In this document: in pieces, positions 5,401-41,481 of the stretch
How positions within the stretch are numbered: position 1 is the first letter of the stretch
Layout: the number at the start of each line of letters is the position of its first letter
Virus record (IMG/VR): IMGVR_UViG_3300017747_004610
Length of the DNA: 64,000 bases
Direction: 5' to 3' (one strand)
Source of the DNA: an uncultured virus (IMG/VR IMGVR_UViG_3300017747_004610)
Taxonomy: Duplodnaviria > Heunggongvirae > Uroviricota > Caudoviricetes
Program-made: the position numbers and the translations under genes
The notes under the pieces: model-generated
The model's database searches: none
What the model was told of the DNA's origin: nothing
Seen by the model: only the letters and a program-made list of their open reading frames with translations

Positions 5401-6036
5401 CTTGGGTGGTTTTATGATAACAATAGAGAACCTACCTTACCAAATACAATTCCGTTACAACAAGCTGCAACAAATATATTGGGGCTACCTTATAAAGAGA
5501 TTAAACCAAGAATCTCTTATAAAATTCTCGAAAGACCTTATGAAGAAAAATATGTTACAATTGCCACCAACTCAACCGCAGGATGTAAGTTTTGGACAAA
5601 AGAGGGATGGCAAGGCCTTATCAATTATCTTCATTCTCTCGGATATAAAGTTATCAATGTATCTAAAGAAAACAATCGATTTGACAACTGTGAAAAAATA
5701 AAAGATACTGCAATGGATTATACAATGAATGTCATCCATCACAGTGAATTCTTCATTGGGTTATCCAGCGGATTATCTTGGTTATCTTGGGCAATGGGTA
5801 AACACGTTGTGATGATTAGTAATTTCACAGAACCTGACCACGAATTTACTTCTAACTGTACAAGAATAACAAATCCAAATGTTTGTAACGGATGTTGGAA
5901 TAGTCCTATATATAAATTTGATAAAGGAGATTGGAATTGGTGTCCAGTTCACAAAGGAACAAACCGACAATTTGAATGTCATACATCAATAACACCAGAA
6001 ATGGTAATAAATAAAATACAACACTTATTAATATGA
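2404..6036 (+). CDS. Multidomain SAM methyltransferase / GT-A / GT-B (GT4-like) / Aah-TibC-like protein O-glycosyltransferase fusion
   Basis: ILDVGPGVG and GDVLEHL (MTase); YVDSD (DxD); PHLSTGGMP, GLWTSGKNQ, NSTWECNPLVIREA (GT-B); SSSLGDTVSWIPY, FIGLSSGLSWLSW, CNGCWN...WNWCPVHK...FECHTSIT (Aah/TibC-type). Confidence 0.85.
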   Translation: MPESYKFFKEEVKNYLINNVSLSSKILDVGPGVGTYSELIRNFGYKIDCVEIWEPYVETYNLKEKYDNVFVGDIMDFDISNYDFIILGDVLEHLPKEQGMSLIQRIHKLGKQCLVAVPYQMEQGEHNGNIYETHHQSDLTIQLMTERYPELTMIYSNHYYGYYVSTEKITIGTKFEKSFVLYSTENYFDILTECVKSIREFSELPIIVYLINSDRQIEVPKTKTIRWDLQIDDLSDDLYLNHNNNFYIDRKNPTIYKILIQRPLIVKDALSKYSDTICYVDSDSIATPLVDTIFSYFNQTSNYPYFVEGIYEFLILNGIGVGGELNETLEHNACELFGVDQSVRKNYRQTGYFIAGQNTYDFLDEWYWMCNHPKILNNIGHYTPFNEETIANVLLWKYNIQEGLPYIYVNGTFDTINKMYNEVEYKGDGIRNFQGDWLRVPYHKEHLLFFHGEKKPETMRQMVEEIKKHNNVSEEIQVHSPESNSEKLRILFLAPHLSTGGMPAYLLKRIESLSLHYPFIEFFLAEFCQYSTLYTVQRDRIKEIVPEERFWTINTLNDHNVENSMKVIDLIKTHFIDIVHIDEMIEGFDSFNKVPDELKHALYDNNRTWRVVETCHNIWFDPESSKLFHPDAYALCTPYHLEKTFKKMPSHMEVFEFPIENRFRSRVEQVRAQEELGLDISKVHIINVGLWTSGKNQREGIEIAKHFEGGNVEFHFVGNQASNFESYWKPLMSDLPSNVRIWGERSDVDTFMKASDILMFNSTWECNPLVIREAASLGLKIIARDLPQYVGMFNGLITPLTDDIPTNVNNLRRLISSSRDYQILDGMTEEFAVKHYNLYKFLLTQEPRKKTKSNTKVQIKQFFINEPFLEIVGQSDSEYDVKFFDEFGVCNYHNTIKSNHWIKLNRKYFTKWNTKILEDKVLIYDETLNYESKRVFINFDSSSLGDTVSWIPYVLEFKNTHKCEVIVSTYWNHLFREAYPELEFVEPGSVVHNIHGQYNLGWFYDNNREPTLPNTIPLQQAATNILGLPYKEIKPRISYKILERPYEEKYVTIATNSTAGCKFWTKEGWQGLINYLHSLGYKVINVSKENNRFDNCEKIKDTAMDYTMNVIHHSEFFIGLSSGLSWLSWAMGKHVVMISNFTEPDHEFTSNCTRITNPNVCNGCWNSPIYKFDKGDWNWCPVHKGTNRQFECHTSITPEMVINKIQHLLI

Positions 6037-6707
6037 ATTTAGAAAACTTTGTTTGGGAACCTAAATGTTATGAAGGATTCCGAGAAACCGTTGAAAAAGA
6101 AATTTTCGTGGATAAAATTTACGAAAGATTTTTTGAAGTTGAAGAGGGAGATGTGGTATTTGATATTGGTGCGAGTCTTGGTCCATTCACCTATTCTATT
6201 TTACACAAAAATCCTTCACAGGTGTTTGCCTTTGAACCAAGTTTTGAAGAATTCAAGACATTAGTTTTGAACACCAGACATGGAAATGTTACTCACATAA
6301 ACAAAGGTATTTCCAACACCATTGGAGAATTCGAATTTTCAGAAGTATTTGATGTTTCAGGTAATCATAAACTTTATTCAACCACATTTAATAAAGTAAT
6401 CCAAGATTACAATATTAAAAAAATTGATTTCTTAAAAACTGACTGTGAAACTGGAGAATACGACATTTTCACTTTGGAAAATTTGTTTTGGATTAAAAAT
6501 AATGTGAGAAAAATTTCAGGTGAATGGCATTTAAGAGAAGAATGGATGAAGGAAAAGTTCAGAATATTTAGAGATGTTTATTTAAGATTTTTCCCTAACT
6601 TCAAAGTATATTCATTTGATGGTATTGACATTACTTGGTCAATTTGGAATGAAAATTTTATTCCTTATTACAACGAAATTATGATTTATATCGATAATAG
6701 AAATTAA
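6033..6707 (+). CDS. FkbM-family methyltransferase
   Basis: VVFDIGASLG, FAFEP, IDFLKTDCETGEY, GEWH. Confidence 0.85.
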   Translation: MNLENFVWEPKCYEGFRETVEKEIFVDKIYERFFEVEEGDVVFDIGASLGPFTYSILHKNPSQVFAFEPSFEEFKTLVLNTRHGNVTHINKGISNTIGEFEFSEVFDVSGNHKLYSTTFNKVIQDYNIKKIDFLKTDCETGEYDIFTLENLFWIKNNVRKISGEWHLREEWMKEKFRIFRDVYLRFFPNFKVYSFDGIDITWSIWNENFIPYYNEIMIYIDNRN

Positions 6708-7513
6708 ATCAAACTACTTGGTACGTAATTTCTGAAGTTTGAATAAATGTGATTCAATAATGATTTTGAATAATTTTGATTGTGTTTCGGTCCCGGATGA
6801 ATATTATCAACCGCATCATCTATGAATGACCCATATGTCCCATCAAACCTATTGAACTCATTATGTGTTGTAGGAATACCCATCCATCCATTCCACAACC
6901 AATTACATTTTTTGGATTCTAAAAAATATTTTATTAAGAGGTGATTTTTATACCAATTCATAAAATCTTGATAATCATTCTGAATCGTTGTTAAACTATG
7001 TTGGATTTCTCTTCCCTCTTCAGTTTCCTCTGTGTAACCCCACTGTGAAGTTATCATAAATGGTTCTAATCCTCCATCTTTGGTGTATAGTTCTCTTCTT
7101 TGTGGAGAAGTATACATAATCAAAACTAAATCAGGTTTGATAAAATCATAATAAGTTATCAAACATCTTGATATGTAATCATTACTTCTCCCTCCCATAC
7201 CAAAATTATGGTTTACTCCATTCGAAATTAATTTAGAAAATTGAGCCGGCCACGTTTCATCATTATTAACACCAACCCCTTCTGTATTTGAGTCCCCAAT
7301 ACTCATTATCTTAAATCCGTCTTTATGAATAGAGTCTCCTCTGAACCCCAATTCATTATATGTATAGGTACATAAACGAGTTTTGTCAGATCCAGATGTT
7401 TGATACGACTTGTTGACCTTCTCAGATAAATTCCATTTATAGCTCGAAATTTCAAATCCTTCAGGTGTCCAATATTTCAAATTATCTACACAGGGGTAAT
7501 AGGTTTGATTCAT
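6704..7513 (-). CDS. SGNH/GDSL-fold hydrolase or acyltransferase
   Basis: NELGFRG, IGDSNTEG, GGRSND, DNIHPG. Confidence 0.75.
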   Translation of the reverse strand: MNQTYYPCVDNLKYWTPEGFEISSYKWNLSEKVNKSYQTSGSDKTRLCTYTYNELGFRGDSIHKDGFKIMSIGDSNTEGVGVNNDETWPAQFSKLISNGVNHNFGMGGRSNDYISRCLITYYDFIKPDLVLIMYTSPQRRELYTKDGGLEPFMITSQWGYTEETEEGREIQHSLTTIQNDYQDFMNWYKNHLLIKYFLESKKCNWLWNGWMGIPTTHNEFNRFDGTYGSFIDDAVDNIHPGPKHNQNYSKSLLNHIYSNFRNYVPSSLI

Positions 7514-8589
7514 TATATTAAAGTTTTAACAGGCGTAATAAATTCTTGTAGGTTACTCCAACTATAATTGTTTGGTAAGAAAGAATTAACTTCTTTTATA
7601 AATTCATTATACTCCGAATGAGATTCATTCCAAATTTGTTCTAATAAAAAATCCTCTTCACTAAATGTACCCCAATTAGTTATCTTACCAAAAAACACAT
7701 TTACCTTTTCACCAAAAATAGAATACATCAAATCGTAGAATAACTTCATTTCTTTATAATTTTTTTGTTGAACTACAAATGAAGTTTTTATGGTCCTTAA
7801 AGTTGGTATTGTTGAAATAAACTTTAAGTTATCTAATAATATATCCCAATTGCCATTTATTCTTGTTTTTGTTTCATAGGTTTCTTTAGTTCCTGCATCA
7901 ACACTAATTTCACAACTTGTAACATATTGATGTATGTTCGGCATCGATTCCCACATTTCTTTAGTCCAACGTGTAGCATTAGTGTGTAAGTGAATTGATT
8001 TCAGTTTTGGCCATTTGGATTTATCAAAATTTCTTAAAAAATCTCTAAAACCAACTGACACAAATGGATCTCCACTACCCGTTATATATAATGTATTCAC
8101 CTCGTTTCCATATGCATCTTCAATATCTTGTATGTCTTGTTTTACTTTTTTTATTTTATTACTGTCCGCAATAATCATATTTAATCGACATGAAGGACAT
8201 TCAAGATTACAGCTCCTGTCCATTGAAAATTGTACTAACTGTGGCGAAGTTAATTTTCCTTCCTTATATTTTTTTATTTTTATATCTAAATTAGAGCTTA
8301 ATTTATCTTTGTGGTAAAGAGGATAGACTCTACCAACATCTCCAAAGGTTTTCAATTGATGTATAAACGGGCAATGATTATGATCACAATATCTATATGA
8401 CCCATCTAATATACTATCTCGAATATCATTTGCTTCTTCTGAATTCCATGCGTCGTATGGTTTAGTATTTTCAGGTAAAAATTTAGTTAACCATGACGCA
8501 CAACATAAAAATCTTTGATGGTCATGAATTTCTATAGAAGTGAAGGGAACCGCACAAATATAATTTTTTAATAAATTTTTTTTCACCAT
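7513..8589 (-). CDS. Radical SAM protein with N-terminal SPASM/twitch-like Cys cluster
   Basis: CAVPF...LCCASW...YRYCDHNHCP, CNLECPSC, GSGDPF, LHTNA, ISVDAGTKETY. Confidence 0.9.
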   Translation of the reverse strand: MVKKNLLKNYICAVPFTSIEIHDHQRFLCCASWLTKFLPENTKPYDAWNSEEANDIRDSILDGSYRYCDHNHCPFIHQLKTFGDVGRVYPLYHKDKLSSNLDIKIKKYKEGKLTSPQLVQFSMDRSCNLECPSCRLNMIIADSNKIKKVKQDIQDIEDAYGNEVNTLYITGSGDPFVSVGFRDFLRNFDKSKWPKLKSIHLHTNATRWTKEMWESMPNIHQYVTSCEISVDAGTKETYETKTRINGNWDILLDNLKFISTIPTLRTIKTSFVVQQKNYKEMKLFYDLMYSIFGEKVNVFFGKITNWGTFSEEDFLLEQIWNESHSEYNEFIKEVNSFLPNNYSWSNLQEFITPVKTLI

Positions 8590-8646
8590 AAAATTATCTC
8601 AATTTATTTTTCGTATCTAATAGACACACAGAAATTTTCTATCATT

Positions 8647-9096
8647 TTATAAAAAATTTCTTTGGCTTTCTACATCAAGAGGATTATTCATCATAAACCC
8701 AATCAAAGTATACCTTTTTCCAACACAATTATTTACTCGATGGTATTCTTCTCCGCTAAAATATACCATATCTCCAACCTTTGGAGTGAATTCATTGTTG
8801 TCAAAAATAAGCTCACCTCCCGTAAAATCTTCATTAAGAAAAACAATGAAAGACCATGGATTATGATGCAAGTGTGGAATTTCAACCTGATTAATACTGT
8901 CATCCACCATTTGAACTCTGAACTTTTTGAAAGAAAAATTTGAGAACTTTTTTACTTCTAATTCTCTTCCCATTAAATCAACAAAATAAAATTTATAATA
9001 TTCATCCCCATAATATTTTTTATCTTCATTGTGGAAAATATCCATGAAATAATTAATTTCATCAGAAGTTAAAAAAGATGGAATATATTTTATCAT
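8647..9096 (-). CDS. 2OG-Fe(II) oxygenase (P4H-like)
   Basis: PHLH, FIVFLNEDFTGGEL, YHRV, GKRYTL. Confidence 0.8.
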   Translation of the reverse strand: MIKYIPSFLTSDEINYFMDIFHNEDKKYYGDEYYKFYFVDLMGRELEVKKFSNFSFKKFRVQMVDDSINQVEIPHLHHNPWSFIVFLNEDFTGGELIFDNNEFTPKVGDMVYFSGEEYHRVNNCVGKRYTLIGFMMNNPLDVESQRNFL

Positions 9097-9098
9097 TG

Positions 9099-9626
9099 TT
9101 AAAATAGTTTTGTTTCAGTTCCTAATTCTTTATAAGTTATAAAATAAACAAAAGAATATCGTGTACCTTTGGTGATTTCGGTAACTTCATGAAGAACTTC
9201 AGAATCCATTTTATATAATAATCCCTTTTCTGTCGCCAACTTTCCATCAGGATTATAGGTGATAAGTTCACCTCCCTCAAAATCATCATTTAATTTGGCT
9301 CCAATGATTAAGGCCCAATCATTTTGTCTTTCTCTATCAACGTGTTTGGTAAATTTACCACCCGTAAAAAATTCATGAGCATAAAAATAGTTGCCTTCTT
9401 TTATTTTATTGTTTGGATACTCGTCTTTCAAAAAATCAGAAATCAAATCGAAAAACCATTGTGTCGACTCTTCTCGTTTGACTTCACAAATATTATAATC
9501 TAATCTAGATTTATGTAATCCCGCAGGTGAACAAACATCAGGGCAATATCTAACATTAGATTTACCAAAATAGGAAATCCATGATATTACTTCGTCACAC
9601 TGCTCATTTGTCAATTTCATAATCAT
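9099..9626 (-). CDS. 2OG-Fe(II) oxygenase (P4H-like)
   Basis: KHVD, LNDDFEGGEL, LHEVTEITKGTRYS. Confidence 0.85.
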   Translation of the reverse strand: MIMKLTNEQCDEVISWISYFGKSNVRYCPDVCSPAGLHKSRLDYNICEVKREESTQWFFDLISDFLKDEYPNNKIKEGNYFYAHEFFTGGKFTKHVDRERQNDWALIIGAKLNDDFEGGELITYNPDGKLATEKGLLYKMDSEVLHEVTEITKGTRYSFVYFITYKELGTETKLF

Positions 9627-10168
9627 TATATAATTTGTTGAGGTATCATTAAATCACTTTTTTTCACCCAAAATACCATAGAGTATCTTACACCTTCAGT
9701 AACTTCACTAACCCAATGTGGTATTTTTGAGTCAAAACTGATACAATTTCCTCTTGAGGAGTTAGCAATATAATCTTCAAACATCAAGTCACCCCCTACA
9801 TAAGATCCATGTTCAGACAATTGGATAATATACGACCTATATCTTTCCCCTCTTTCCTTGTCACCAGAATCATAATTAAGAACATTATTATCCCTATGAA
9901 CAGGGAAAGAATCTCCAACGACATATTTCCTTACCAATAAGTTATGAACCTGTTCTTCATTTGAGAATGTAAATGGTTTTAGATTCAACTCAGGAAAGAT
10001 AGAAAAAAACTCTTCGGGTATATCTTCGTGTGATACTAGCCCTTCTTGCCCACATTTACCATATCTCCTCCCCCTTTCAATAACATCCAAAACTCCACTT
10101 TCAAAGTATTGAATGAAATAATCACACAAACTATGACTCAATAAAATTTTTTCTTCAATTGATTTCAT
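9626..10168 (-). CDS. 2OG-Fe(II) oxygenase (P4H-like)
   Basis: VHRD, YVGGDL, PHWVSEVTEGVRYSMVFW; start moved to ATG 10168 (ATGA overlap with upstream stop) from the track's 10213. Confidence 0.85.
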   Translation of the reverse strand: MKSIEEKILLSHSLCDYFIQYFESGVLDVIERGRRYGKCGQEGLVSHEDIPEEFFSIFPELNLKPFTFSNEEQVHNLLVRKYVVGDSFPVHRDNNVLNYDSGDKERGERYRSYIIQLSEHGSYVGGDLMFEDYIANSSRGNCISFDSKIPHWVSEVTEGVRYSMVFWVKKSDLMIPQQII

Positions 10169-10746
10169 ATGATTTGTTTCTCTATTTGTTTTTGATTGAG
10201 TATATCGATACAAAAACTTCCAGCATAAACTATCCTCTTTTTTTCCGAGTTTGGAGTCGGTATTGCAGTATGTCGTATGTCTGCTGGAAATATAAATATA
10301 TCCCCAACTTCAGGTAAAAATTTATATCTTTGTTTATTTTCGTCTTCAAATACTATACATCCTTCATCCCCACTTATTTCATCTGTTGTCTGTAAATAAA
10401 ACGTGAAAGTATAATCTGTTAAAATATTTGACCTACCAGAAGGATGAACTTGAATGTGTTGATGCATCCATTCTAAATTGAACCCTTTTTTTTGAGTATA
10501 CACCCAATAATGTTGAGCATAATTGGTGAATTTTTTATTAGATATATTCTCTATTTGATTTTTAATATATGAATTTATCGATTGAAAACACTCCGTTTCT
10601 ATTTCTATCCAAACAGAATTATCATTGGTATGTGTTGCCATTCCATCATTTAACTCAACATATTTCAAAAATTCATCAATAGAATACTCATTATTGTACT
10701 TCCCTTTATATATTGTGAACTTTTCAGATAACTTTATTGGCGTCAT
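10165..10746 (-). CDS. Putative 2OG-Fe(II) oxygenase (TIGR02466-like)
   Basis: WMHQH, FTFYL, GDIFIFPADIRHTA, RIVYAG. Confidence 0.75.
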   Translation of the reverse strand: MTPIKLSEKFTIYKGKYNNEYSIDEFLKYVELNDGMATHTNDNSVWIEIETECFQSINSYIKNQIENISNKKFTNYAQHYWVYTQKKGFNLEWMHQHIQVHPSGRSNILTDYTFTFYLQTTDEISGDEGCIVFEDENKQRYKFLPEVGDIFIFPADIRHTAIPTPNSEKKRIVYAGSFCIDILNQKQIEKQII

Positions 10747-11345
10747 ATGATAGATGTTGGTGACTTGAATTTTATAATACCATCTCCCTTTACGAAAATT
10801 CCATTCTTAAAATAAGTCCAGTTAATCGTATGAATTGGAGTAACTATTTTTGTAAATTTATGTGGGTCAATCTTATATTCATAATAATTCAACTCACTTT
10901 GTTTTCTAAATGTAAAATAATTAAAAATCGATAAAATACAATTATCATTAGCAATAGTTTTACAATAATCTTCAAATTTTTCGTAATTGATATCGTCATG
11001 TGTATCCATGAATATTCCATCAAATTTTTGATTAAGTTTTGGGATAACCTCCACCCAATCTCCAAATATAATGGTTACATTTGATTTGTTTTTAGCCCAA
11101 TTTTGAGCTTTTTCATAAATCTGAGGATTAATTTCAATACAGGTATAATGATTAGCTAAACTACTCATTTTGTTTGCAGAAAATCCCATACCAAAACCAA
11201 CATCTAAAACGTTACCCCCATTTTGACAAACTATATATGAGTACATTTCCATCAAAGATTTTGATGCAGAATCCATAACAATAGATCTCGGGTTATTCTT
11301 AAAATGAATATTTTTATCCGTAAAAACGACTACTTCATCTTTCAT
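10743..11345 (-). CDS. Class I SAM methyltransferase, GAMT/RMT2-like
   Basis: GGNVLDVGFGMG, CIEINPQI, GDWVEVIP, FDGIFMDT. Confidence 0.8.
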   Translation of the reverse strand: MKDEVVVFTDKNIHFKNNPRSIVMDSASKSLMEMYSYIVCQNGGNVLDVGFGMGFSANKMSSLANHYTCIEINPQIYEKAQNWAKNKSNVTIIFGDWVEVIPKLNQKFDGIFMDTHDDINYEKFEDYCKTIANDNCILSIFNYFTFRKQSELNYYEYKIDPHKFTKIVTPIHTINWTYFKNGIFVKGDGIIKFKSPTSII

Positions 11346-11357
11346 GTGTATTATACA

Positions 11358-11789
11358 TTATAGTAAATCTTTTTTATTAAAACGCTCGTATCTCCCATAA
11401 TTACTCAATAATTCTTCGCCCTTATATATTATTCGGTTAGTAAGGAATGTGTCCTTATCTATGTTGGACTTATCGAATCCACTATTAATAAAGTAGTATG
11501 GTGTAGTATAAATCCAATGGCATCCTTTTGTCAACTTTACATAGGTACGGTTATCTGACGGAAAATCAGGTCCATATAAAAATATGTCTTTGATATGAGT
11601 ATAAAGTTCGTTAGGTAATAGAAGTAATTCAGATTCTAATATTGGATACAAACCTGTTTCTCCATTCCAAACTTCAAATGGATTAATTTGAGATGGAATG
11701 TCTTTGATTGCAAATACACCAATTCCTTGGACTCTACTTGGTTTTAACCTTACAAAAATTTTGGTAGATATATACTCGAAGGGAGTCAT
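11358..11789 (-). CDS. SET-domain protein (putative lysine methyltransferase)
   Basis: RLKPSRVQGIGVFAIKDIP, YFINS, RIIYKGEELLSNY. Confidence 0.8.
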   Translation of the reverse strand: MTPFEYISTKIFVRLKPSRVQGIGVFAIKDIPSQINPFEVWNGETGLYPILESELLLLPNELYTHIKDIFLYGPDFPSDNRTYVKLTKGCHWIYTTPYYFINSGFDKSNIDKDTFLTNRIIYKGEELLSNYGRYERFNKKDLL

Positions 11790-11932
11790 TACATATGCTT
11801 TGCAATAAACAATTCAAAAAACTTGGCAACTGTTTGATTGACTTGTGTTTTTTCAGTTTGACTTAAAGCACTTGTTTTTCTTGTCTCAACTTGAGACATA
11901 GTTACTTTCTTATATAATGATGGATTTGTCAT
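11789..11932 (-). CDS. Small 47-aa protein or candidate substrate peptide
   Basis: Not in track; MTNPSLYKKVTMSQVETRKTSALSQTEKTQVNQTVAKFFELFIAKHM*; starts 7 nt after the Hint gene stop and its TAA overlaps the SET ATG (TAATG). Confidence 0.75.
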   Translation of the reverse strand: MTNPSLYKKVTMSQVETRKTSALSQTEKTQVNQTVAKFFELFIAKHM

Positions 11933-11939
11933 GTTTTTA

Positions 11940-14195
11940 TTATTTATTGTGAACTAAAATTTTATTTGCAAAAAAGTTATGATTTTCCGAAACACTTAAT
12001 AGATTGTAAACAGTATGTGAGCTTACATCTTCTTTAACACTAATAATGGTTATATCAGTTTTATCATCTTTAATACATACATCACCTTCTTGAAGATTTT
12101 TCGCTTCAACCCAACCTTTTTCTTTTACGAAGAATGGATGTTCAGGAGTTGTAGTTAATAATGTCGTATCATCAAATACCAAATCAATAACATCTTCAAC
12201 ATTATGTATTTTCAAATCACCAACAATACCTAATTCAGTTTCTCCAGTCAATTCATTATAAGTAAGAACTTTTTCCCCAACAACAACATCTTCAATATTT
12301 TTGTATTCTCCATCAAGTAAAGTTATTTTGGTACCCGCAACAAAACAACGATTGTGTACTAATCGATTGTTTGCAAAAAAGTTATGGTTGTTTTCCACTA
12401 CTTTTACATTATAAACAATTACTGCCTCTGAAATAATATCAATTGATTTAATAAGGGACTCTGTACCATCTTCCTTAAGGATTTTAATTCCGACTTCAGC
12501 TTGTCTAGTGGTCAACCCATAAACGTTAAGTGTATACTTAGGGTCTTGTGATATCCAACCGATTTGACGTGAATAAATTGGGTGGTCCAACGTTGACTCC
12601 AAAATTGTATCATCCTCGAATGTATACTTTACTGTTTTGTCAACTTTTCTAGAACCAACACCTCTAACTTTTTGTTTTTCAACCATAGAGGTATTAAAAT
12701 TATAAGATAAAACTACATCACCAATTTGAATATTTTCAACATTTTTTTGTGTTTTATCTTCCAAAGTTATTTTTGTACCAGCAACAAAACAAGGTGCGTT
12801 ATGTGAAATTACTCCGTTGAATGGTGTTGACCCACTAATAATATAGGTATCAGTATCTTCAGCGTCAAGTTCTACTAATTTCAAACTAGTATCCGTAGTG
12901 ACATAAAAATTGACCTCATCGATCCCAATCAAATCGCCATCGATGTCATACAAATAATCAACTTCAGGTCTCAAATAAACGGAAAGTTTATATTTGGAAA
13001 TGTTTGTGGAAGAATCATAAACTAAAAAGTGTTTATTTGCCCCGATAAATTTAGATTCTGAATCAACCACGATTTCAACTAACCCCCCATACTTCAATTG
13101 TTTCTCATCCTTAAAAACAACTTCAGATGTAGTCATATAAGACCCTTCGGGAAAATATTGTCCTTCAAATGTCCAATTCATAATTTCTGAATTTATTTCA
13201 ACTTGAGGAGACCCTGAAATGAAAAACGATTTAATAAATTCTCCGACACCAACATCTGCAATCGGCTTATACTCCTCATCCTCCATTAAAATTTGATGAG
13301 TTGACAATAGTCCACCACAATCCAATTTTATGAAATTTGTGGTGTATTCATAATAATGATGGTCAGATATTTTATTAACATATTGAGTATCATCAACTTC
13401 AGATTGAATACTGGTTGGCAATTCGAATATTGAGCTAATCTTATAATTGTGTAATGTAATTATATCTAAATTACCTCCATACACAATATGAAAACTTCTA
13501 ACCGAGATGATATGATCATCCTCATCTAAACTAGAAGGCCCATAATGATATTGTTGAATAATTTTATTTTCGGTATTTATTGAACTTAAAAAAGATGCCC
13601 ATCTGTCCTCGTCACTTTCACCTTCAACAGTAGAACCTATTTTATAAAAATCTATTGGATTGAATTGTTCAATCATGTCCTTAACCGCAACATCAGGGAC
13701 ATTTGGTGAATTAATTATTGAATCTAAACTATTGTTAGATTCTGTTGAGGACGAATAAAAGTACGAAACTACTTTGGATGATTCATTATTTGACGTAAAT
13801 AAATTAAGAAGTTCTACAGTACCTTTACAATAGGTACTATCAAAAAGTGCAGACTCGTCATAAGCCAATCTCAGTATAAATTTATCACTTGAGTCAGGAA
13901 TCGTCGCAGGATAAATTGTATTAATATCTTCATCATGTAAATTTATAACCGTAACAAATGGTGCGTCAGCAGTTATAGTATTTGAAATATGAGTTACAAT
14001 TTTATCATGAATGAAAGGCTTATATACAATATCAAGTTGAGTAATGTTATTTGTCTGAAGTACACTTATAAATTCGGTAAAATCGAAATTATATAATTCA
14101 TTACCAACGATACTTGTATCGGTGTTAAACTCCAATAATCTTAAATTATCATTCGTGTCTTTAACAAAGTCAGCCGAAAATAAAGTTCCTTTCAT
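11940..14195 (-). CDS. Circularly permuted ATP-grasp-like domain fused to three tandem Hint (intein-like) domains
   Basis: N-terminal SADFVKDTNDNLRLLEFNTD. Hint1 ~G295-N466 (degenerate start, ends ISHN); Hint2 C469-N615 (CFVAGT...STLDHP...VYN...LVHN); Hint3 C617-N750 (CFVAGT...TTPEHPF...VYN...LVHN-K). Confidence 0.85.
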   Translation of the reverse strand: MKGTLFSADFVKDTNDNLRLLEFNTDTSIVGNELYNFDFTEFISVLQTNNITQLDIVYKPFIHDKIVTHISNTITADAPFVTVINLHDEDINTIYPATIPDSSDKFILRLAYDESALFDSTYCKGTVELLNLFTSNNESSKVVSYFYSSSTESNNSLDSIINSPNVPDVAVKDMIEQFNPIDFYKIGSTVEGESDEDRWASFLSSINTENKIIQQYHYGPSSLDEDDHIISVRSFHIVYGGNLDIITLHNYKISSIFELPTSIQSEVDDTQYVNKISDHHYYEYTTNFIKLDCGGLLSTHQILMEDEEYKPIADVGVGEFIKSFFISGSPQVEINSEIMNWTFEGQYFPEGSYMTTSEVVFKDEKQLKYGGLVEIVVDSESKFIGANKHFLVYDSSTNISKYKLSVYLRPEVDYLYDIDGDLIGIDEVNFYVTTDTSLKLVELDAEDTDTYIISGSTPFNGVISHNAPCFVAGTKITLEDKTQKNVENIQIGDVVLSYNFNTSMVEKQKVRGVGSRKVDKTVKYTFEDDTILESTLDHPIYSRQIGWISQDPKYTLNVYGLTTRQAEVGIKILKEDGTESLIKSIDIISEAVIVYNVKVVENNHNFFANNRLVHNRCFVAGTKITLLDGEYKNIEDVVVGEKVLTYNELTGETELGIVGDLKIHNVEDVIDLVFDDTTLLTTTPEHPFFVKEKGWVEAKNLQEGDVCIKDDKTDITIISVKEDVSSHTVYNLLSVSENHNFFANKILVHNK

Positions 14196-14251
14196 AATCT
14201 TTTTGGTTATATATTAAATATCTTGCAAGGATTTAATCTGTTTATGTTATT

Positions 14252-14794
14252 CTACAAAAGGGTCTTGCCCTTAGAAGTTGTAGTTCTCGAAATACAAATG
14301 TGAGTTAGTTCCAAACTTTGCGGTAATTTTAACTGAAAATCGATAACATCGTATATTTCAGAAAAATTAACCTTATTAAAACCAACTCTTTTATTGTGTT
14401 CCAAAGTATTCGGATATAAATTAACAATTCTCACTTTTTTATCGAGATTTGAATTAATCATCTTCAAAGAGGATTGTTGTAACTTTAACTTACTTTCCCG
14501 ATAATCGTCAAAACTTCCATTATTAAAAATGGCCGATGTCAGAATGTTGAAAATTGTCTTATCCTTGTATTTCCACTGGTCGAAAAGTTCTTCGAATATT
14601 TTCTGTTGGTAACTCGGATGATAAGTATTATTTATGAAAACATCTAAATCAACAACATCATTCAATATTTTTTCGTAATTTTTCAAGTCATATCCATTAC
14701 TTCTTGAAAATCCGATAACTTCATGATTTTTTCCCAACAAATCAAACAACCCTTTTCCTAAGAAATCACTGTGTCCTGTTATTCCTATCCTCAT
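14252..14794 (-). CDS. Short atypical SDR / Rossmann-fold oxidoreductase
   Basis: MRIGITGH...LG, GFSRSNGYD, VFINN, YRESK (YxxxK). Confidence 0.75.
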   Translation of the reverse strand: MRIGITGHSDFLGKGLFDLLGKNHEVIGFSRSNGYDLKNYEKILNDVVDLDVFINNTYHPSYQQKIFEELFDQWKYKDKTIFNILTSAIFNNGSFDDYRESKLKLQQSSLKMINSNLDKKVRIVNLYPNTLEHNKRVGFNKVNFSEIYDVIDFQLKLPQSLELTHICISRTTTSKGKTLL

Positions 14795-15303
14795 ATCAAA
14801 CTAACTGGTTCTTTGATATTTTCCTTGAATAAAAATATTATTAGTGAATATCTAATCCCATTTTCAATTTTGGTCACCTCGTGTTCTCTAGTATTTCTGA
14901 AAGAATATATCGTCCCCGCTTTTTTCGGAATAATCTCTTTCGGTCCATACAAAATAAAATCACCTCCATCATAGTCATCATTCAAACAAACTCCGACATT
15001 TAATTTTTGATTAGGATAGTATATATCACTATGTCTTTCAAATTGATTTCCGGACTCGTATTTGTGTAAATGTATTACTTCAAACGGTTTGACTATTTCA
15101 ACATTCTCATCTAAAAGCAAAAATTCAGTTATTTTATCAAAAATCCAAGAGACATTTTCATTTCTAAAAATGTTGTAATACGTATATGTTATTTTTTCTC
15201 TTGGTCTTTCAACATGTATACTATTTGCATCTCGATGAGTACCTTCAATTTCTTGAGTTAATTTTATTATCTTATCACACTCTTCTTTTGAAAACGATAC
15301 CAT
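14791..15303 (-). CDS. 2OG-Fe(II) oxygenase (P4H-like)
   Basis: RHSD, LNDDYDGGDF, EHEVTKIENGIRYSL. Confidence 0.85.
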   Translation of the reverse strand: MVSFSKEECDKIIKLTQEIEGTHRDANSIHVERPREKITYTYYNIFRNENVSWIFDKITEFLLLDENVEIVKPFEVIHLHKYESGNQFERHSDIYYPNQKLNVGVCLNDDYDGGDFILYGPKEIIPKKAGTIYSFRNTREHEVTKIENGIRYSLIIFLFKENIKEPVSLI

Positions 15304-15339
15304 GTTTTAATAATAAAATAATTTGATTAAAAATCAAAT

Positions 15340-15456
15340 TTAATGGTTGTAAATAAAAGGGTCTCTCTTTTTCAACTCTTCAATTTTCTTTTTTAATTCT
15401 TTTTTCCTTTTGCGGTCTTTAATTTTTTTCAAAAACCAGTCAATAATTTTCTTCAT
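15340..15456 (-). CDS. Small basic protein ending DPFIY (carbamoyltransferase-associated, SxtK/DUF5989-like tail)
   Basis: Not in track; MKKIIDWFLKKIKDRKRKKELKKKIEELKKRDPFIYNH*; ATGA overlap with the carbamoyltransferase stop. Confidence 0.7.
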   Translation of the reverse strand: MKKIIDWFLKKIKDRKRKKELKKKIEELKKRDPFIYNH

Positions 15457-17120
15457 AGTATTTTGTGTATTATATAATTATCTAAAACTAACAAGTCCAA
15501 GTCAGTATCCTTGAAAGTTTCTATTGCATTAAACGGATTCAGTACCATTGTTTTATCTTTAACGTTGAATGATGTATTCAATATAATTGGATACCCACTT
15601 AGTTTTTCAAACTCAATTAATAAGTCGTGAATAACAGTATTTTCATATACAGTTTGAATTCTTGACGTTCCGTCCACGTGAACAACTGCCGATAATTTAT
15701 CTGCGTATTCTTCTCTAACTTTAACAATTTGATTCATGTATGGTACATCATCAATTGTGTAGAAAAACTCATTCTGTTTCTCTTTAATAACCATAGGGGC
15801 AAAAGGACGAAACCCCTCTCTTTTCTTAATCAATTTATTAATTCTGGATTTCATATCGGGTACAGTAGGGTCGGCTAAAATAGACCTGTGTCCTAATGCT
15901 CTTGCTCCGAATTCGATTCTATCTCTATACCACCCAACTACTTTACCTTCATGGATTTTTTTGGCTACGTATTTTATTAATATATTGTAATCGTGAATTT
16001 CAAAAAAGTTCAAATTTTTAATGTGACCCATATAAAATTCAACATCATACTTTGGTCCCAAAAAAGGATTCTTGGTAACTCTTTTTGTTAATTTTTTATT
16101 TTGTACAAGGTAATGAATACAAGCTCCAACACAGGATCCAGCATCAGATGGTGCGACTGGTATCCAAATTTTTTCAAACTCAGAATTGGATACTATCTTC
16201 CCATTCGCAGTACCATTGTACGCCGAACCACCTCCTAAGCAAAGATTATTACTACCAAGATTTTTCAAACTTTTGATAATATCAAATAAAACTTCTTCGT
16301 ATCTTAGTTGAACTGCCGCTGCTAAATTTTGATGAATTGTAGTAATTTCTTCTTCAGTTAATCTTGGTGAAATACCTAAATGTTCTATTAGTTTTTCGTT
16401 GAACATCAATTTTTCTGACTTATCCCAACAAAAAACATCCATATCACAGATTAATTCTCCATCTTTGAATTCTATTAAACTTCTAATTTTTTCAATATAC
16501 TCTTTAGGGTCTCCGTATGACGCTAATCCCATTAATTTATATTCTCCTTCATTTGGTTTGAATCCCAAATACGAAGTCATTGTAGAATAATAAAGTCCTA
16601 ATGAATGTGGATATTTACCCAAATCATGATATTCAATTCCATCATTATCCGCCAAACCAAAAGATAATGTGTCAATTTCACCAACACCATCAATAGATAA
16701 ACAGATTGCCCTTTCAAAATCGGAAGTGAAAAAAGAATAATACTGATGTGCCAAATGGTGTTCGGAGTAAAATACTCTTCCCTTAAATGGCTTCAAATGT
16801 TTATTTACATCTGATATATTTTTTAAGATTTTAACTAAAGATTTCAAAGAATATTTCGGTGACGTAAAAAAGTTTTTCTTGATGTTACTCAATACTCTTT
16901 TTAGTTTCAGATTGAGGTCTTCATAATAACAAACCATTTCAATATCATCATAGGTTATGTTATAATATCCGAAAATATGTTGAATCGTATTAATTGGAAA
17001 AGAACTGTCGTGTTTGATTCCCGTAAATTTTTCCTCTTCACAAGCAAACACCAACTCCCCGTTTTTGAATAGACAGGCGGATGAATCGTGATAAAAGGAT
17101 GAAATGCCAAGTACGTACAT
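15453..17120 (-). CDS. Carbamoyltransferase, NodU/CmcH/TobZ family
   Basis: LGISSFYHDSSA, EHHLAH, IDGVGE, GEYKLMGLASYG, EFGARALGHRSILADP, REGFRPFAP, HVDGTSRIQTV, LNTSFN. Confidence 0.95.
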   Translation of the reverse strand: MYVLGISSFYHDSSACLFKNGELVFACEEEKFTGIKHDSSFPINTIQHIFGYYNITYDDIEMVCYYEDLNLKLKRVLSNIKKNFFTSPKYSLKSLVKILKNISDVNKHLKPFKGRVFYSEHHLAHQYYSFFTSDFERAICLSIDGVGEIDTLSFGLADNDGIEYHDLGKYPHSLGLYYSTMTSYLGFKPNEGEYKLMGLASYGDPKEYIEKIRSLIEFKDGELICDMDVFCWDKSEKLMFNEKLIEHLGISPRLTEEEITTIHQNLAAAVQLRYEEVLFDIIKSLKNLGSNNLCLGGGSAYNGTANGKIVSNSEFEKIWIPVAPSDAGSCVGACIHYLVQNKKLTKRVTKNPFLGPKYDVEFYMGHIKNLNFFEIHDYNILIKYVAKKIHEGKVVGWYRDRIEFGARALGHRSILADPTVPDMKSRINKLIKKREGFRPFAPMVIKEKQNEFFYTIDDVPYMNQIVKVREEYADKLSAVVHVDGTSRIQTVYENTVIHDLLIEFEKLSGYPIILNTSFNVKDKTMVLNPFNAIETFKDTDLDLLVLDNYIIHKIL

Positions 17121-17647
17121 TATGAATTATATTTTTCAGGATATTCGTTAATTAAGGTTATCCCTCCCTCATTTATTGCATGGTCATAAGCGTTTTTAAC
17201 ATCATCCGCAGTCAAACAATCAAAAAATTTTATTGTTTGAGTTATTGACTGAAACTCTTTGAAATAATTATTTCTGTGTTGAGGGCCTGGATTCAAAGGT
17301 ATTTCCGATCCTTTACCAACTCTAATAATCATATTTGGTTTCCACTGACCATTGCTCATTAATTCCATCTTATCAACATGGTTTATTAATTGATTAGCCG
17401 CACAAATCAAAAAGTCCCATCTCGGATAAAATGTAATCACAAATTTTCCTGTCATTGCAATACCCAAAGACATTCCCATTTGAGAATCTTCCATCACCGG
17501 TAATTCAACCATTTTTTCTTTTGGAACATCGACCAAAGTTGAACTCATCGGGTTTCCCGGAAATAATATCTGTTGTCCAAGAAAAATAGTATCATCCATT
17601 TTTCCTAACTTGGTCATTGCGATTGTTAATGAATCTTTGTATTCCAT
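17120..17647 (-). CDS. TPP-dependent E1 beta-like subunit (pyrimidine-binding domain only)
   Basis: FLGQ, ELPVMEDSQMGMSLGIA, NQLINH, PGPQH. Confidence 0.85.
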   Translation of the reverse strand: MEYKDSLTIAMTKLGKMDDTIFLGQQILFPGNPMSSTLVDVPKEKMVELPVMEDSQMGMSLGIAMTGKFVITFYPRWDFLICAANQLINHVDKMELMSNGQWKPNMIIRVGKGSEIPLNPGPQHRNNYFKEFQSITQTIKFFDCLTADDVKNAYDHAINEGGITLINEYPEKYNS

Positions 17648-18843
17648 TATATTAAACTTTTGAAAAACTTATAATCAGTTTCATCTTGTAATATACTCGT
17701 AACTTTTTTCTTATTAAGTTCAAATCTTTCCTGATTATTTTTATAAAAATTAATTATTTCGTCTTTGATAGAATTTAATCTTTTCACTTCATCAACAAAC
17801 ATAAAAAGCCGTTTTCTCGGGTCTTTTTCATTGTCATAAGAATAATCAATAATATCATCAAACAAATCAAAATCATATCTTTCTTTCAAGAACTTATTAT
17901 GTTCAAAATTAGCCAATATCAAAGGAATTTGAGAATAATAAATTGGCATCAATGATTTTTCTGTAATATGGATTACATCTGTGGATATGTAACCAGTTTC
18001 GGTAACAATATTAACATATGAATTTCTATAAGGATTCATTTCATATGTTTTATAAAAGTCAATGAAGTAAGGTGGCTGGTCAACTCTATAATCTTCTTCA
18101 AACCTACTTTTTTTAATCCCTGATTTTTGAAGAAACAATATTTCATTATAATATTCTTTGAAATCGTCCCTATCAAAAACTTCAAAAAATAAGTTGTATG
18201 ATGGTGTTCCATCTGGATCAGAGAATCGTTCGTTTAATTCATTACCTCGTAACATCGTCCAATCAACTTCATCTAATATCCCTTCTCGTTTCAGTAAAGC
18301 TAACAGAGACACTCTATGTGGTTTTAACATTCTGTTATAACACATAAAAAATGATTCTTTATCTTTTTGAAATTCGTACTTGAATGAGGTCATTCCTTCG
18401 ACCGCCACATAAGGTAATCTATTTGAAGTATGTCCAACAACTTTACTATTCAACTCATTGATTAATTTTTTTATTTTCTGATTTCCATTGATTGCAATTA
18501 TCTGATTCGAATTAATCGATTCTTCATTACAATATTTTTCGATAAGTTTTATTACGTTTCCATTGTCGGACTCATGTTCCGCTAAAATAACAAGAAAACA
18601 ATTGGAGTATAATTTCATTAACTCTTTTACTTTTGAGGATGCAGGAAGTGATTGGAAATTTTCCATATAAGTTCCTGTTATTGTAAATGAATAATATTTT
18701 TGTTCGGAGTCAACCTCAAAATTATTTATATCAATCATTTTAATCCCGTCAACTTTGTTAGCGGTCAAAGTGTTAAAAATATGTTCCTTTTCGTTTTCGA
18801 TATTACTATCAAACAATAAATTAAAATACTTCATAATCTTCAA
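17647..18843 (-). CDS. Putative glycosyltransferase (GT10-like TEK motif family), paralog 1
   Basis: YNRMLKPHR, NIVTET, HITEKSLMPI, DYSYD. Confidence 0.55.
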   Translation of the reverse strand: MKIMKYFNLLFDSNIENEKEHIFNTLTANKVDGIKMIDINNFEVDSEQKYYSFTITGTYMENFQSLPASSKVKELMKLYSNCFLVILAEHESDNGNVIKLIEKYCNEESINSNQIIAINGNQKIKKLINELNSKVVGHTSNRLPYVAVEGMTSFKYEFQKDKESFFMCYNRMLKPHRVSLLALLKREGILDEVDWTMLRGNELNERFSDPDGTPSYNLFFEVFDRDDFKEYYNEILFLQKSGIKKSRFEEDYRVDQPPYFIDFYKTYEMNPYRNSYVNIVTETGYISTDVIHITEKSLMPIYYSQIPLILANFEHNKFLKERYDFDLFDDIIDYSYDNEKDPRKRLFMFVDEVKRLNSIKDEIINFYKNNQERFELNKKKVTSILQDETDYKFFKSLI

Positions 18844-19473
18844 TTAAAATACAACCCACTTACCTGTTCCATAATGAGGCCAATGTTTTTCATACTCGTA
18901 GTAAACTACTTCATTAGGTATTTCCTCTTTTTTGCCCCATGTTTCGATTGTTGGAGTATTTGTAGAAACTCCATTATCTTCAACAACAAATCTAACAGGT
19001 AATTCAAAGTTTTTTATATATTTGTAGTTTTCCATAAAAGTACCTGTCTCAAAAGTCATGTCCCCAATAAAACACCAAACAATTTCATTCTTATTATCTC
19101 GTTTATTAGACATTGCAACGCCAGTAGCAATTGGAATTATTCCACCGACAATCGCCGAACTATAGAATTTTTTTTCTTTATTGATGATACTAATCGATCT
19201 CCCATCCAAAATTTCTGATTCTAACCAATCAGGTGATACTCCTTTAAGTAAAGCATGATAATGAGACCTCCATGTAGAAAATACCCAATCATTCTCTGAA
19301 ATTCTTTTGAAGATTTCAATAAGATGTTTTTCATTACCTCCACTCAAATGAACAGGGCCTCGTATTTTACCAGTTTCCCAACTTTCAACTATTTTATTTT
19401 CAAAATGAATAAGTTCTTCTTCATTCCAGTTGTGTTCTCTAACTATTGGATACTGTTCTAAATTTTTTATCAT
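18844..19473 (-). CDS. TPP-dependent E1 alpha-like subunit
   Basis: GPVHLSGGNE, STWRSHYH, SAIVGG, GD...(N) TPP motif FIGDMTFETG...VEDN. Confidence 0.9.
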   Translation of the reverse strand: MIKNLEQYPIVREHNWNEEELIHFENKIVESWETGKIRGPVHLSGGNEKHLIEIFKRISENDWVFSTWRSHYHALLKGVSPDWLESEILDGRSISIINKEKKFYSSAIVGGIIPIATGVAMSNKRDNKNEIVWCFIGDMTFETGTFMENYKYIKNFELPVRFVVEDNGVSTNTPTIETWGKKEEIPNEVVYYEYEKHWPHYGTGKWVVF

Positions 19474-40032: not shown

Positions 40033-41481
40033 TTATTTGTTATAATTATCCTTATCTGAAATGTATTCACCTGGTTCATAATGTGTGATTCGTCCATCTG
40101 TAACTCTCACATCAGGTATGGTTTCATCAATTTCAATCGAATTATACCAATCCTCTAATTCAGGAAAAGTTTCAACAAAACTTTTATTTCTTCTTTTATC
40201 ATATTGTGTATAAAAACTTTTGAAATCGTGAAATTGCATTTGCATGTCAGTTTCAGTTGTATTGTGTCCACGGTTAACTACCTCGATGTAATCAACTAAT
40301 CTTTGAATTTGAGCACCTTCATACATGTTAATCAATGGGTTCTTTTTATTTTTTCTCCACCACATTGATAATTTACCGTGTAAATCATGTTTAACATCAT
40401 CAGGTAACGTCAAAGGTGACATAAATGCCGGCCATCTAAGAATGTTGAAGTCCACAATAGGTTTGTTCCATCCATACTTAGCCTTTAGTGTTAACATATC
40501 ATCCAAGAATTCAGTGATACTAAACAGACATAAACTATTAATTGTCATCATAATCACAACTTGTCTCACGTTACCTTTCTCAATGACTTGAACCAAATTG
40601 TTTCTCCACACTTCGTAGTTCAAACCATCTCTGATGTATTCTGCGTGTGCTCCATATGATTCATTACTAGTATAAATGTCAAATTCTTTAACATCAATTT
40701 CATTTGTTACGTTTATCAACTTATCAATAAATTCTTGACTGACACCTAAATTAGAATTAATAGCAACTCTTAGGTTTGGTGATGGATATTTTTTTACTTC
40801 TTCCATAAACTGCCAGAAATTATGACTCATGGTAGGTTCTCCTCCAGTAACTCTAATCTCTTGTAATGTTTTTGTTAGTTCTGGCCACCACTCTAAGAAT
40901 GCCGACACATATGGATTATTTTCATTGTGTTTACCATAGATTTCAGACCAAGATCCATCAGCATAATATGCCCCTGCACTTGTGGTCTTGAACTTTTGAT
41001 AAGCTCCATTCTTTTTGATGTCTTTACCCCAAGTTGTTGAATAACCTGAATTACAGTATGAACACGCAAAGTTACAGGTACGATCGAAACTAACTTCAAT
41101 AGTTTTTGGGGTAATGTCTGCATCCCAAGGAAAGTCTTTCAATGCCGCAATTTCTTCTTCAGTGTAAATTTGACTTTTATATACACGGTCAGAAATGTTA
41201 TTTCGACCAATATCTTCAATCTTCCAACAATATGAACATTCTGCAGGTTTAGTACCTTCCAACATCATTTTTCTAATTTCTTTTTTGAAATCAGTATTAT
41301 GTAATGCGGATGGATTTGTTTTGATTTTTTCTAAATCAATAGGATGGGGTAATGGAAGATGACATGAATTTGTAAACCCATGACCTAAATGTAAACTGAC
41401 GTTATACCATTTTGCGGCACAAAAGCTACAACTTACGGAATTTAGGTTTTTATCTCTCCAATTTGCTAATTGCTCTGACAT
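40033..41481 (-). CDS. Radical SAM protein with N-terminal twitch-like domain
   Basis: FCAAKW...NSCH...ECSYCW, CNFACSYC, TGGEPT, INSNL. Confidence 0.9.
   Translation of the reverse strand: MSEQLANWRDKNLNSVSCSFCAAKWYNVSLHLGHGFTNSCHLPLPHPIDLEKIKTNPSALHNTDFKKEIRKMMLEGTKPAECSYCWKIEDIGRNNISDRVYKSQIYTEEEIAALKDFPWDADITPKTIEVSFDRTCNFACSYCNSGYSTTWGKDIKKNGAYQKFKTTSAGAYYADGSWSEIYGKHNENNPYVSAFLEWWPELTKTLQEIRVTGGEPTMSHNFWQFMEEVKKYPSPNLRVAINSNLGVSQEFIDKLINVTNEIDVKEFDIYTSNESYGAHAEYIRDGLNYEVWRNNLVQVIEKGNVRQVVIMMTINSLCLFSITEFLDDMLTLKAKYGWNKPIVDFNILRWPAFMSPLTLPDDVKHDLHGKLSMWWRKNKKNPLINMYEGAQIQRLVDYIEVVNRGHNTTETDMQMQFHDFKSFYTQYDKRRNKSFVETFPELEDWYNSIEIDETIPDVRVTDGRITHYEPGEYISDKDNYNK

Follow-up and report, generated by a model that had tools for sequence, protein, structure and literature searches.

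Several described systems come close to parts of the gene set reported here. Peptides made by the ribosome and modified after translation (RiPPs) include enzyme-precursor fusions (borosins/omphalotin) and Cys-rich peptides modified by radical S-adenosylmethionine (SAM) enzymes, and it is known from intein chemistry that a Hint domain without an N-terminal nucleophile makes no N-terminal thioester and can still cut after its Asn. We know of no RiPP class with a Hint domain or with an ATP-grasp enzyme of the glutathionylspermidine synthetase (GspS) type. Here we describe a 64,000-nucleotide stretch (the window) of the uncultured virus record IMGVR_UViG_3300017747_004610, in which a run of twelve open reading frames (ORFs) at 6704-15303, all on the minus strand, includes the gene for a 751-aa protein (11940-14195) that joins an ATP-grasp-like head to three Hint domains. 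Ten enzymes are encoded beside this hub, i.e., five 2-oxoglutarate (2OG)-Fe(II) oxygenases, a short-chain dehydrogenase/reductase (SDR), a SET-domain protein, a methyltransferase resembling guanidinoacetate N-methyltransferase (GAMT), a radical SAM protein and an SGNH-like protein. We propose, with a probability of roughly 55%, that they belong to one linked, hub-centred, virus-only system for peptide or protein tailoring, of which the run is the dense core. The gene set appears to be undescribed: among the papers listed, full-text literature searches found neither an ATP-grasp-Hint protein nor a Hint domain in a RiPP-like pathway, and no paper in which a bacterial intein-like (BIL) domain and ATP-grasp occur together.

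The hub consists of a ligase head that is permanently fused to a first Hint domain, Hint A, and then to a variable tail, which in the window is cut by two BIL-type Hint domains into AP, R and K (layout -AP-Hint-R-Hint-K). Over residues 1-292 (13320-14195) there is no sequence-level match to any solved chain or Pfam family; judged by the fold of its AlphaFold2 (AF2) model, with a predicted local distance difference test (pLDDT) score of 96.1, this part is a circularly permuted ATP-grasp ligase domain, for which ligation is the predicted activity. Foldseek returned 28 matches in the Protein Data Bank (PDB) at E <= 0.001, those among the matches listed being ATP-grasp ligases. The best were YgiC, YjfC, GspS and eukaryotic glutathione synthetase (E 5e-6 to 1e-4, TMq 0.39-0.46), by their PDB titles carboxylate-amine ligases acting on the C-terminal carboxylate of short peptides. 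Residues D9, E22, N24, T25 and D119 are invariant in 87 sequences of this domain, and the E-x-N formed by E22 and N24, which may be an Mg/ATP-binding motif, is invariant or nearly so across the family by sequence alignment.

Hint A (residues 293-466; 12798-13319) was recognised by hhalign against the two other Hint domains (probability 98.3%, E 1.4e-14, 135 columns). It has no N-terminal nucleophile, the place of Cys1 being taken by Gly295 (95 of 113 sequences at this column); Cys293 of the window copy is unconserved, as is the block B His, and E446, D449, H465 (103/113) and N466 (106/113) are nearly invariant. By intein chemistry, such a domain could only cut after its Asn466. The spacer Ala467-Pro468 (12792-12797) leads to Hint B (residues 469-615; 12351-12791), Arg616 (12348-12350) to Hint C (residues 617-750; 11946-12347), and the chain ends with Lys751 (11943-11945). 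Hints B and C are intact BIL-type domains with all catalytic blocks (C469...TLDH...HN615 and C617...TPEH...HN750), 36% identical to each other. They match Pfam and NCBIfam intein models (Hint-clan families for Hint B; PF07591 at E 1.3e-20 and TIGR01445 for Hint C), and their nearest solved relatives are BIL domains, as seen in the profile matches of Hint B to 6tmm/6y75 and 2lwy. Their +1 residues are Arg616 and Lys751 instead of the Cys, Ser or Thr of canonical inteins.

The enzymes encoded around the hub share a C-terminal ending. All ten in the run finish with [LIF][LIF]-COOH (SLI, TLL, DLL, SII, QII, QII, KLF, NFL, TLI and SLI, in gene order from the high end), compared with 9 of the 45 other ORFs of the window (Fisher p = 3e-6) and none of the 14 ORFs on the rest of the contig; inside proteins the dipeptide class has a frequency of 4.6%. 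Across related loci the ending recurs in the 2OG oxygenase clusters (2OGa 126/141, 2OGc 39/44, 2OGb 29/38) and in the radical SAM (76/84), SET (19/23), SDR (14/16), SGNH (34/47) and methyltransferase (8/10) families, whereas conserved phage genes of the same loci lack it almost entirely (Hsp20 0/40, APS kinase 1/23, several others 0). The consensus of this tag is K at -4, T, K, S or N at -3, L or I at -2 and I or L at -1, and it is common to at least 20 unrelated enzyme families. We rejected the idea that it is a by-product of ATGA gene overlaps, as 6 of the 25 window ORFs that have no overlap carry the ending, compared with 11 of the 28 that have one. It was absent from all nine 2OG homologues examined from three ligase-less cyanophage isolates.

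Such a tag could also mean that the enzymes are substrates or cargo of the hub and not the tailors of its tail. The ATP-grasp domain would then join the K-x-L-I end to an amine, with the tail freed by Hint A, a tail lysine or Lys8 of the small partner protein described below as candidates, or the ending would serve as a loading or degradation signal for some other assembly. The nearest folds, which by their PDB titles are ligases acting on a peptide C-terminal carboxylate, fit this, as does the sharing of one ending by so many families; a Lys lies near the end of every tail considered (17/17 single-Hint tails read and 29/29 Cys-rich tails), and encapsulins, known to use short C-terminal loading peptides, offer a precedent. 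However, nothing ties the ending to the active site, the end of the partner (K-H-S/L/M) is not of the tag type, and many enzymes could be extended only at the high cost of a donor tail for each ligase molecule. We regard this alternative as quite unlikely.

A further question is whether the genes travel together. The preliminary description of the run had proposed a gene-neighbourhood analysis, which we carried out over 57 dereplicated loci (groups) bearing the ligase. Next to it, the 2OG cluster was present in 48 groups, radical SAM in 26, SET likewise in 26 (counted from locus maps and Pfam), SGNH in 19, a carbamoyltransferase in 16 and SDR in 11. The set was kept in distant loci with other flanks, following PhoH in L008/L047 and Hsp20 in L009, which has a Trp halogenase in addition. 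In the reciprocal direction, the ligase was present in 56 of the best 80 radical SAM loci; of the 37 such loci of at least 18 kb, 34 had it nearby, and in the remaining 3 it lay at another place on the contig. A tblastn search of 50,697 GenBank phage records gave no match to the radical SAM or SET protein. Because of the co-occurrence, the reciprocal test and the shared ending, the genes are supported as a linked set rather than chance neighbours, in agreement with this part of the preliminary description.

The same loci allow us to weigh a second explanation, in which the run is a decoration island for glycans or small molecules: its 2OG oxygenases, SDR, SGNH-like protein, methyltransferase and radical SAM protein, joined by the carbamoyltransferase, would act with the flanking glycosyltransferases on sugars, the host envelope or virion glycans, and the ligase-Hint protein would be an unrelated neighbour. 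Nucleotide-sugar enzymes and glycosyltransferases do fill both flanks of the run; the carbamoyltransferase, an APS-kinase-like protein and large glycosyltransferase-methyltransferase proteins recur near the ligase in relatives; and the 2OG oxygenases of cyanophage isolates sit amid fucose and mannose genes plus a carbamoyltransferase. Sugar-nucleotide reductases are among the weak sequence matches of the SDR, and the ending occurs on a GT2-like ORF of the window and on a glycosyltransferase-methyltransferase fusion. Yet the set stays with the ligase in loci without sugar genes (L008/L047 and L009), the radical SAM gene shares its contig with the ligase in 37 of 37 long loci, the ending is missing from nine of nine 2OG proteins of ligase-less isolates, and SET domains are established protein-lysine methyltransferases. 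On balance we consider an independent glycan island unlikely, though it is the more serious competitor of peptide or protein tailoring.

A further element of the proposed system is a 47-aa partner protein (11789-11932, minus strand), whose gene begins 8 nt downstream of the ligase gene. A 43-53 aa ORF directly downstream of the ligase, at a distance of 2-100 nt, was present in 42 of the 57 dereplicated loci, a count to be read knowing that in some of the remaining loci the partner was hidden by ORF picking. In an alignment of 42 sequences Y7 and K8 are invariant, F38 and H46 are nearly so, and the protein ends with K-H-S/L/M. The complex of hub residues 1-468 with the partner was modelled with a score of 0.89, compared with 0.00 for the best of 3 controls; of 157 solved complexes 116 come up to this score mark, as do 2 of 215 mismatched pairs, and these counts hold only roughly here, where our own alignments were used. 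Contact agreement between the runs was at least 98% and partner pLDDT at least 91. In the model the partner wraps around the ligase domain and Hint A, with Y7 and K8 on residues 429-432, and this prediction supports binding of the partner to the hub.

The ligase family is wide. At an identity of 50%, relatives of the N-domain group into 248 clusters (E <= 0.001; E <= 1e-30 for 93), and at 90% into 860; among the 120 of the latter that were listed, no name other than 'hypothetical protein' and 'intein/homing endonuclease' occurs. Of the Atlas clusters among the matches listed, the five nearest (score 0.94-0.95) are 100% Viruses. As far as these records show (names of 120 of the 860 clusters, five Atlas clusters), the family is viral or metagenomic. 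A tblastn search of GenBank phages with the 751-aa protein matched its Hint part alone, in 13 Vibrio or Ruminococcus phage records. The gene is present in identical form on a viral contig of 326,291 bases (L004), and in the full-length matches listed the alignment begins at residue 1 of both query and match. Family lengths rise stepwise, with about 470, 620, 750 and 900 aa corresponding to 0, 1, 2 and 3 extra Hints. Two relatives that looked like Hint-less alleles (P0172 and P0170, 76-77% identical, 486 and 523 aa) turned out to be fragments at contig ends. Some members (L027, L031, L034, L036 and L049; P0020, P0024 and P0037) end with a third kind of Hint that has a Cys start, no terminal His-Asn and the end SGLGDN-x-LN-x-x-[FY]-[KQ]-R-Q, several of them finishing with K-H-L like the partner.

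The tail residues deserve attention of their own, because the preliminary description suggested, as a speculation, that the Pro, Arg and Lys left between the Hint domains are of the residue types on which these enzyme families act. The prolyl 4-hydroxylase (P4H)-like, GAMT-like and SET enzymes would then modify them, and they would be set free as altered amino acids or very small, possibly cyclic, peptides. The enzyme classes fit the residues (PF13640 oxygenases, relatives of guanidino N-methyltransferases, a SET family), and every spacer has a His-Asn cutter on one side and a Cys1 thioester former on the other, a layout like the cutter-spacer-thioester arrangement of engineered intein cyclisation systems. 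In relatives, however, this view found no support. The length of the spacer from Hint A to the next Hint lies between 0 and more than 30 residues, its composition is not constant, and later spacers are variable too, as in AP, R and K (window), AP, RLPPT and K, no first spacer with FKYGGGS and K, or YHFGWRHPGGFT and K. Members with Hint A only have tails such as PPAKIEPPK, PAPPPKL or a single K, and one of these (P0091) has a one-residue tail. Among the 200 extra Hints we distinguish four lineages, which differ in their junction residues: the one to which Hint B belongs has P at -1 in 51 of 56 modules and R at +1 in 51 of 56, while in three lineages +1 is K in 56/57, 43/43 and 26/44 modules, and in most of the 200 it is K or R. 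Since P and R track the Hint B lineage in this way, as expected of junction residues, the window Pro and Arg look like such residues and not like a designed product. Of the 57 groups, 26 have SET and very few have the methyltransferase, yet the terminal Lys is nearly universal; no convincing correlation of spacer type with the presence of SET or methyltransferase was apparent from the locus maps; and each 751-aa protein would yield a single product molecule. We therefore consider it very improbable that the spacer residues are the substrates.

Longer tails occur in a sister clade, which we reached via the radical SAM gene. Its ligases have Hint A only, followed right after His-Asn by a tail of 25-46 residues. 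In all 29 distinct proteins this tail contains one Lys or more, and its Cys number 6 or 8. In 106 pairs with body identity of at least 60%, tails are 48.7% and bodies 68.6% identical. The Cys-rich tails are the best hint that the tail may be a product or a functional appendage, which fits the logic of a precursor. The clade has a counterpart of the partner with the end K-x-K-H-L. A recurring gene order in its loci (L123-L181) is carbamoyltransferase, 38-aa ORF, APS-kinase-like protein, 124-aa protein, DUF2061 membrane protein and ligase, and unnamed tagged families (clusters 3, 5, 8, 13 and 20) lie between the ligase and the radical SAM gene. Sulfotransferase-like motifs noticed in two neighbour families of relatives found no Pfam support and were dismissed.

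Within the tailoring reading, we picture the following course of events. The enzymes would come to the hub by way of the shared ending, which would be a docking signal or else a carboxylate for the ligase domain, itself working on a peptide carboxyl end. The enzymes would modify a peptide or protein held by the hub, its tail or the partner, after which Asn cyclisation would free the product or the ligase would join it. In a more specific version, which we offer as a tentative possibility, the hub would be a self-processing peptide factory with enzyme, leader and precursor in one chain. More than 20 enzyme families would be recruited by the K-x-L-I tag, an inversion of leader-peptide logic, and the variable tail would be modified before release by Asn cyclisation or ligation by ATP-grasp.

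Several points weigh against such a system. No substrate or product has been seen, and Hint A cutting and ligase activity are predictions. The window tail, with only AP, R and K, offers little to tailor, and when the window locus, which has no Cys-rich tail, is compared with loci that have one, their radical SAM proteins are 50-55% identical; for this enzyme a constant part is therefore a likelier substrate than the tail. SGNH, SDR, carbamoyltransferase and the glycosyltransferase-methyltransferase fusion are typical sugar or small-molecule enzymes, and the methyltransferase is rare near the ligase, falling outside the 60 most widespread clusters. Many loci come from related T4-like phages with long syntenic blocks, so co-occurrence could be inherited gene order. 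The pooled contrast of endings (628/743 versus 232/1911) is circular in that the clusters were chosen after their endings had been seen, and the isolate control comprises three genomes only. Finally, the ending is also found on flank ORFs beside sugar genes, which suggests that the system may use sugar-type enzymes as well and keeps the glycan explanation alive.

The gene labels of the preliminary description can be compared with our own annotation of the run. Most of them stood, including the ATP-grasp-like head (by model and Foldseek), the three Hint domains (by Pfam and hhalign) and the 47-aa ORF, which the loci and alignment of relatives identify as a real conserved gene; four 2OG ORFs follow the methyltransferase where three had been counted. 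At the high end lies the first 2OG-Fe(II) oxygenase (14791-15303, 170 aa, end VSLI; PF13640 E 1.3e-9, phrog_2297/phrog_61). The other four are at 10165-10746 (193 aa, end KQII; 2OG oxygenase-like, phrog_81 E 9e-16, PF13640 E 1.8e-4, below the cut-off), 9626-10168 (180 aa, end QQII; PF13640 E 7.5e-10), 9099-9626 (175 aa, end TKLF; PF13640 E 2.2e-6) and 8647-9096 (149 aa, end RNFL; PF13640 E 2.9e-7), so that four of the five exceed the cut-off of PF13640, presumably a P4H-related family. The ORF at 9626 probably starts with the ATG at 10168 and not with the listed TTG at 10213, because its relatives have 180 aa. Hallmarks of 2OG-Fe(II) oxygenases are an H-x-D...H iron triad and a 2OG-binding Arg or Lys. 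The 8647-9096 protein has H-x-H (H-L-H) instead, and of 44 distinct members of its family, 21 use His and 21 Asp as second iron ligand; a three-His iron site would be unusual in a 2OG oxygenase. A halogenase reading of this protein, suggested by a weak WelO5 match, was discarded, as the ligand is neither Ala nor Gly. A flavin-dependent tryptophan halogenase does lie amid 2OG oxygenases in the ligase-bearing locus L009 (16271-17497) and in the ligase-less isolate Sf-CH11 (L183, 8199-9755).

The SDR (14252-14794, 180 aa, end KTLL), a label that was upheld, is a short classical SDR by model fold and invariant residues. It has no Pfam match; its AF2 model (pLDDT 92.4) has short-chain dehydrogenases as top Foldseek PDB matches (E ~1e-8, TMq 0.64-0.75), its profile matches 2ehd (E 7.6e-4), and G7, G13, N55, Y98 and K102 are invariant in 15 sequences. 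Classical SDRs are recognised by a Rossmann fold, a Gly-rich motif and Ser-Tyr-Lys. The SET label was likewise borne out at the family level (11358-11789, 143 aa, end KDLL): 28 of 33 members match PF00856 at E <= 0.001 (best 1.9e-14), the window copy by itself being unmatched, and G22 and E126 are invariant, Y131 nearly so. For the class I SAM methyltransferase (10743-11345, 200 aa, end TSII; PF13649 E 3.5e-8), described earlier as GAMT/RMT2-like, the best solved relatives are guanidinoacetate N-methyltransferases (1p1b, E 6.6e-11), a likeness confined to the SAM-binding part (residues 32-117). The two remaining labels rest on Pfam matches below the cut-off. The radical SAM protein (7513-8589, 358 aa, end KTLI; PF04055 E 6.5e-6, 26.9 bits against a cut-off of 29.5; NF033640 E 1.7e-17, also below its cut-off) has an N-terminal 4-Cys region, and C12, C29, C68, C73, C127, C131 and C134 are invariant in 24 relatives. 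The CxxxCxxC motif (C127/C131/C134) upholds its assignment; that of the SGNH/GDSL-like protein (6704-7513, 269 aa, end SSLI; PF13472 E 4e-4) is weak.

The bounds given earlier were also correct in part. The run lies where it had been placed, with a convergent overlap at 6704-6707 at the low end and a gap of 149 nt at the high end, and no glycosyltransferase or nucleotide-sugar enzyme was detected in it, unlike in both flanks, where there are many. Contrary to the earlier claim, it is nevertheless not self-contained: a 555-aa carbamoyltransferase (15453-17120, minus strand, end HKIL; PF16861/PF02543), outside those bounds, accompanies the set in relatives, and nine ORFs outside the run share the ending, among them a GDSL protein, a GT2-like ORF and, on the convergent side, a 1210-aa fusion of methyltransferase and glycosyltransferase. 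The carbamoyltransferase keeps the orientation of the ligase in loci with inverted sugar genes (L032, L082 and L090) and lies upstream of the ligase also in sister-clade loci. Another outside ORF (17647-18843, minus strand, 398 aa, no known family) ends with KSLI, which fits the tag consensus, and the ending occurs in 15 of the 30 members of its cluster. This ORF lies between two others that make up a thiamine pyrophosphate (TPP)-dependent enzyme, an E1_dh part (18844-19473) and a transketolase pyrimidine-binding part (17120-17647), which match positions 2-198 and 237-402 of phrog_34187. A scan of 5500-18000 gave no excess of promoter-like (79 versus a shuffle mean of 74.2) or terminator-like (2 versus 4.3) signals, and megablast of the 8.6-kb run against GenBank phages gave no match.

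That the module resides in a phage, as the preliminary description had it, agrees with the other genes of the record (83,364 bases, CheckV completeness 27%). Its remaining part encodes baseplate wedge proteins, ribonucleotide reductase, a DnaB-like helicase, a UvsX-like recombinase and a single-stranded DNA-binding protein, the window encodes Hoc-like repeats, the PHROG families of its 2OG oxygenases and carbamoyltransferase are annotated as auxiliary metabolic genes, and the closest isolate homologues of these proteins belong to Synechococcus myoviruses. On account of these structural and replication genes, PHROG families and homologues, the source is, as judged from gene content, a large T4-like aquatic myovirus. 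The window also holds a 1706-aa collagen-repeat protein with a Peptidase_S74 chaperone end (51660-56780; G+C 0.45-0.47 versus about 0.30 elsewhere), and collagen-type Pro or Lys hydroxylation of this fibre may be an alternative task for the five P4H-like oxygenases. Two neighbouring proteins at 44306-47172 each combine a glycosyltransferase of family 7 (beta-4-galactosyltransferase-like), a mostly eukaryotic family unusual in phages, with a LamG/ConA-like domain. Two more radical SAM proteins, at 40033-41481 (482 aa) and 42186-44306 (706 aa), lie amid sugar genes, and both lack the ending.

If the proposed system is real, large aquatic phages have a tailoring system without counterpart in cells. 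Its ligase would come with a built-in device for release by self-cutting and with an obligate subunit of tiny size, and a short tag at the carboxyl end would assemble many unrelated enzymes on one hub. This would be a new mode of enzyme recruitment and a natural use of Hint domains outside splicing and toxin release, and it would open a way to study the numerous orphan 2OG oxygenases that marine phages encode. As a sequence rule the tag is simple and testable, and it could list the members of the system in any phage genome.

Compared part by part with what has been described, residues 1-292 of the hub share the fold of permuted ATP-grasp ligases (YgiC/YjfC, GspS and eukaryotic glutathione synthetase; 7uk8, 7uk6, 2ioa, 2hgs and 1m0w), including the strand with E22-x-N24 at the chain start. 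They are only 8-12% identical to YgiC, YjfC, GspS and glutathione synthetases at TMq 0.39-0.46, and differ in the fused Hint domains and the 47-aa subunit, a combination that to our knowledge none of these ligases has. Hints B and C resemble A-type BIL domains (2lwy; 6tmm/6y75) in Cys1, the T-x-x-H block, the terminal His-Asn and the absence of Cys, Ser or Thr at +1, but here a tandem of them closes the chain of a ligase, the 'exteins' being one residue long, and Hint A lacks both Cys1 (Gly295) and the block B His. The islands of the T4-like cyanophages S-SCSM1, Sf-CH11 and S-CAM7 contain homologous small 2OG oxygenases (33-38% identity) and, as in the window, a Nol-like carbamoyltransferase; they differ in having no ligase, no SET or radical SAM homologue and the ending on 0/9 2OG proteins. 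With graspetides (microviridin-type) the hub shares an ATP-grasp enzyme beside a small peptide gene, but graspetide ligases are of another ATP-grasp type than the permuted GspS/glutathione synthetase type of the hub, and the window tail (AP, R, K) has no Asp/Glu or Thr/Ser pair of a graspetide core. The likeness to RiPPs in general, seen in the family and its sister clade, lies in a conserved body followed by a fast-evolving tail beside radical SAM, oxygenase and methyltransferase genes. A RiPP has a variable core worked on by modifying enzymes; tails do vary across the family, the window tail being only AP, R and K. In contrast to RiPPs, the 'leader' would here be a 466-residue enzyme with a built-in cutter, and the tag is borne by the enzymes and not by the precursor.

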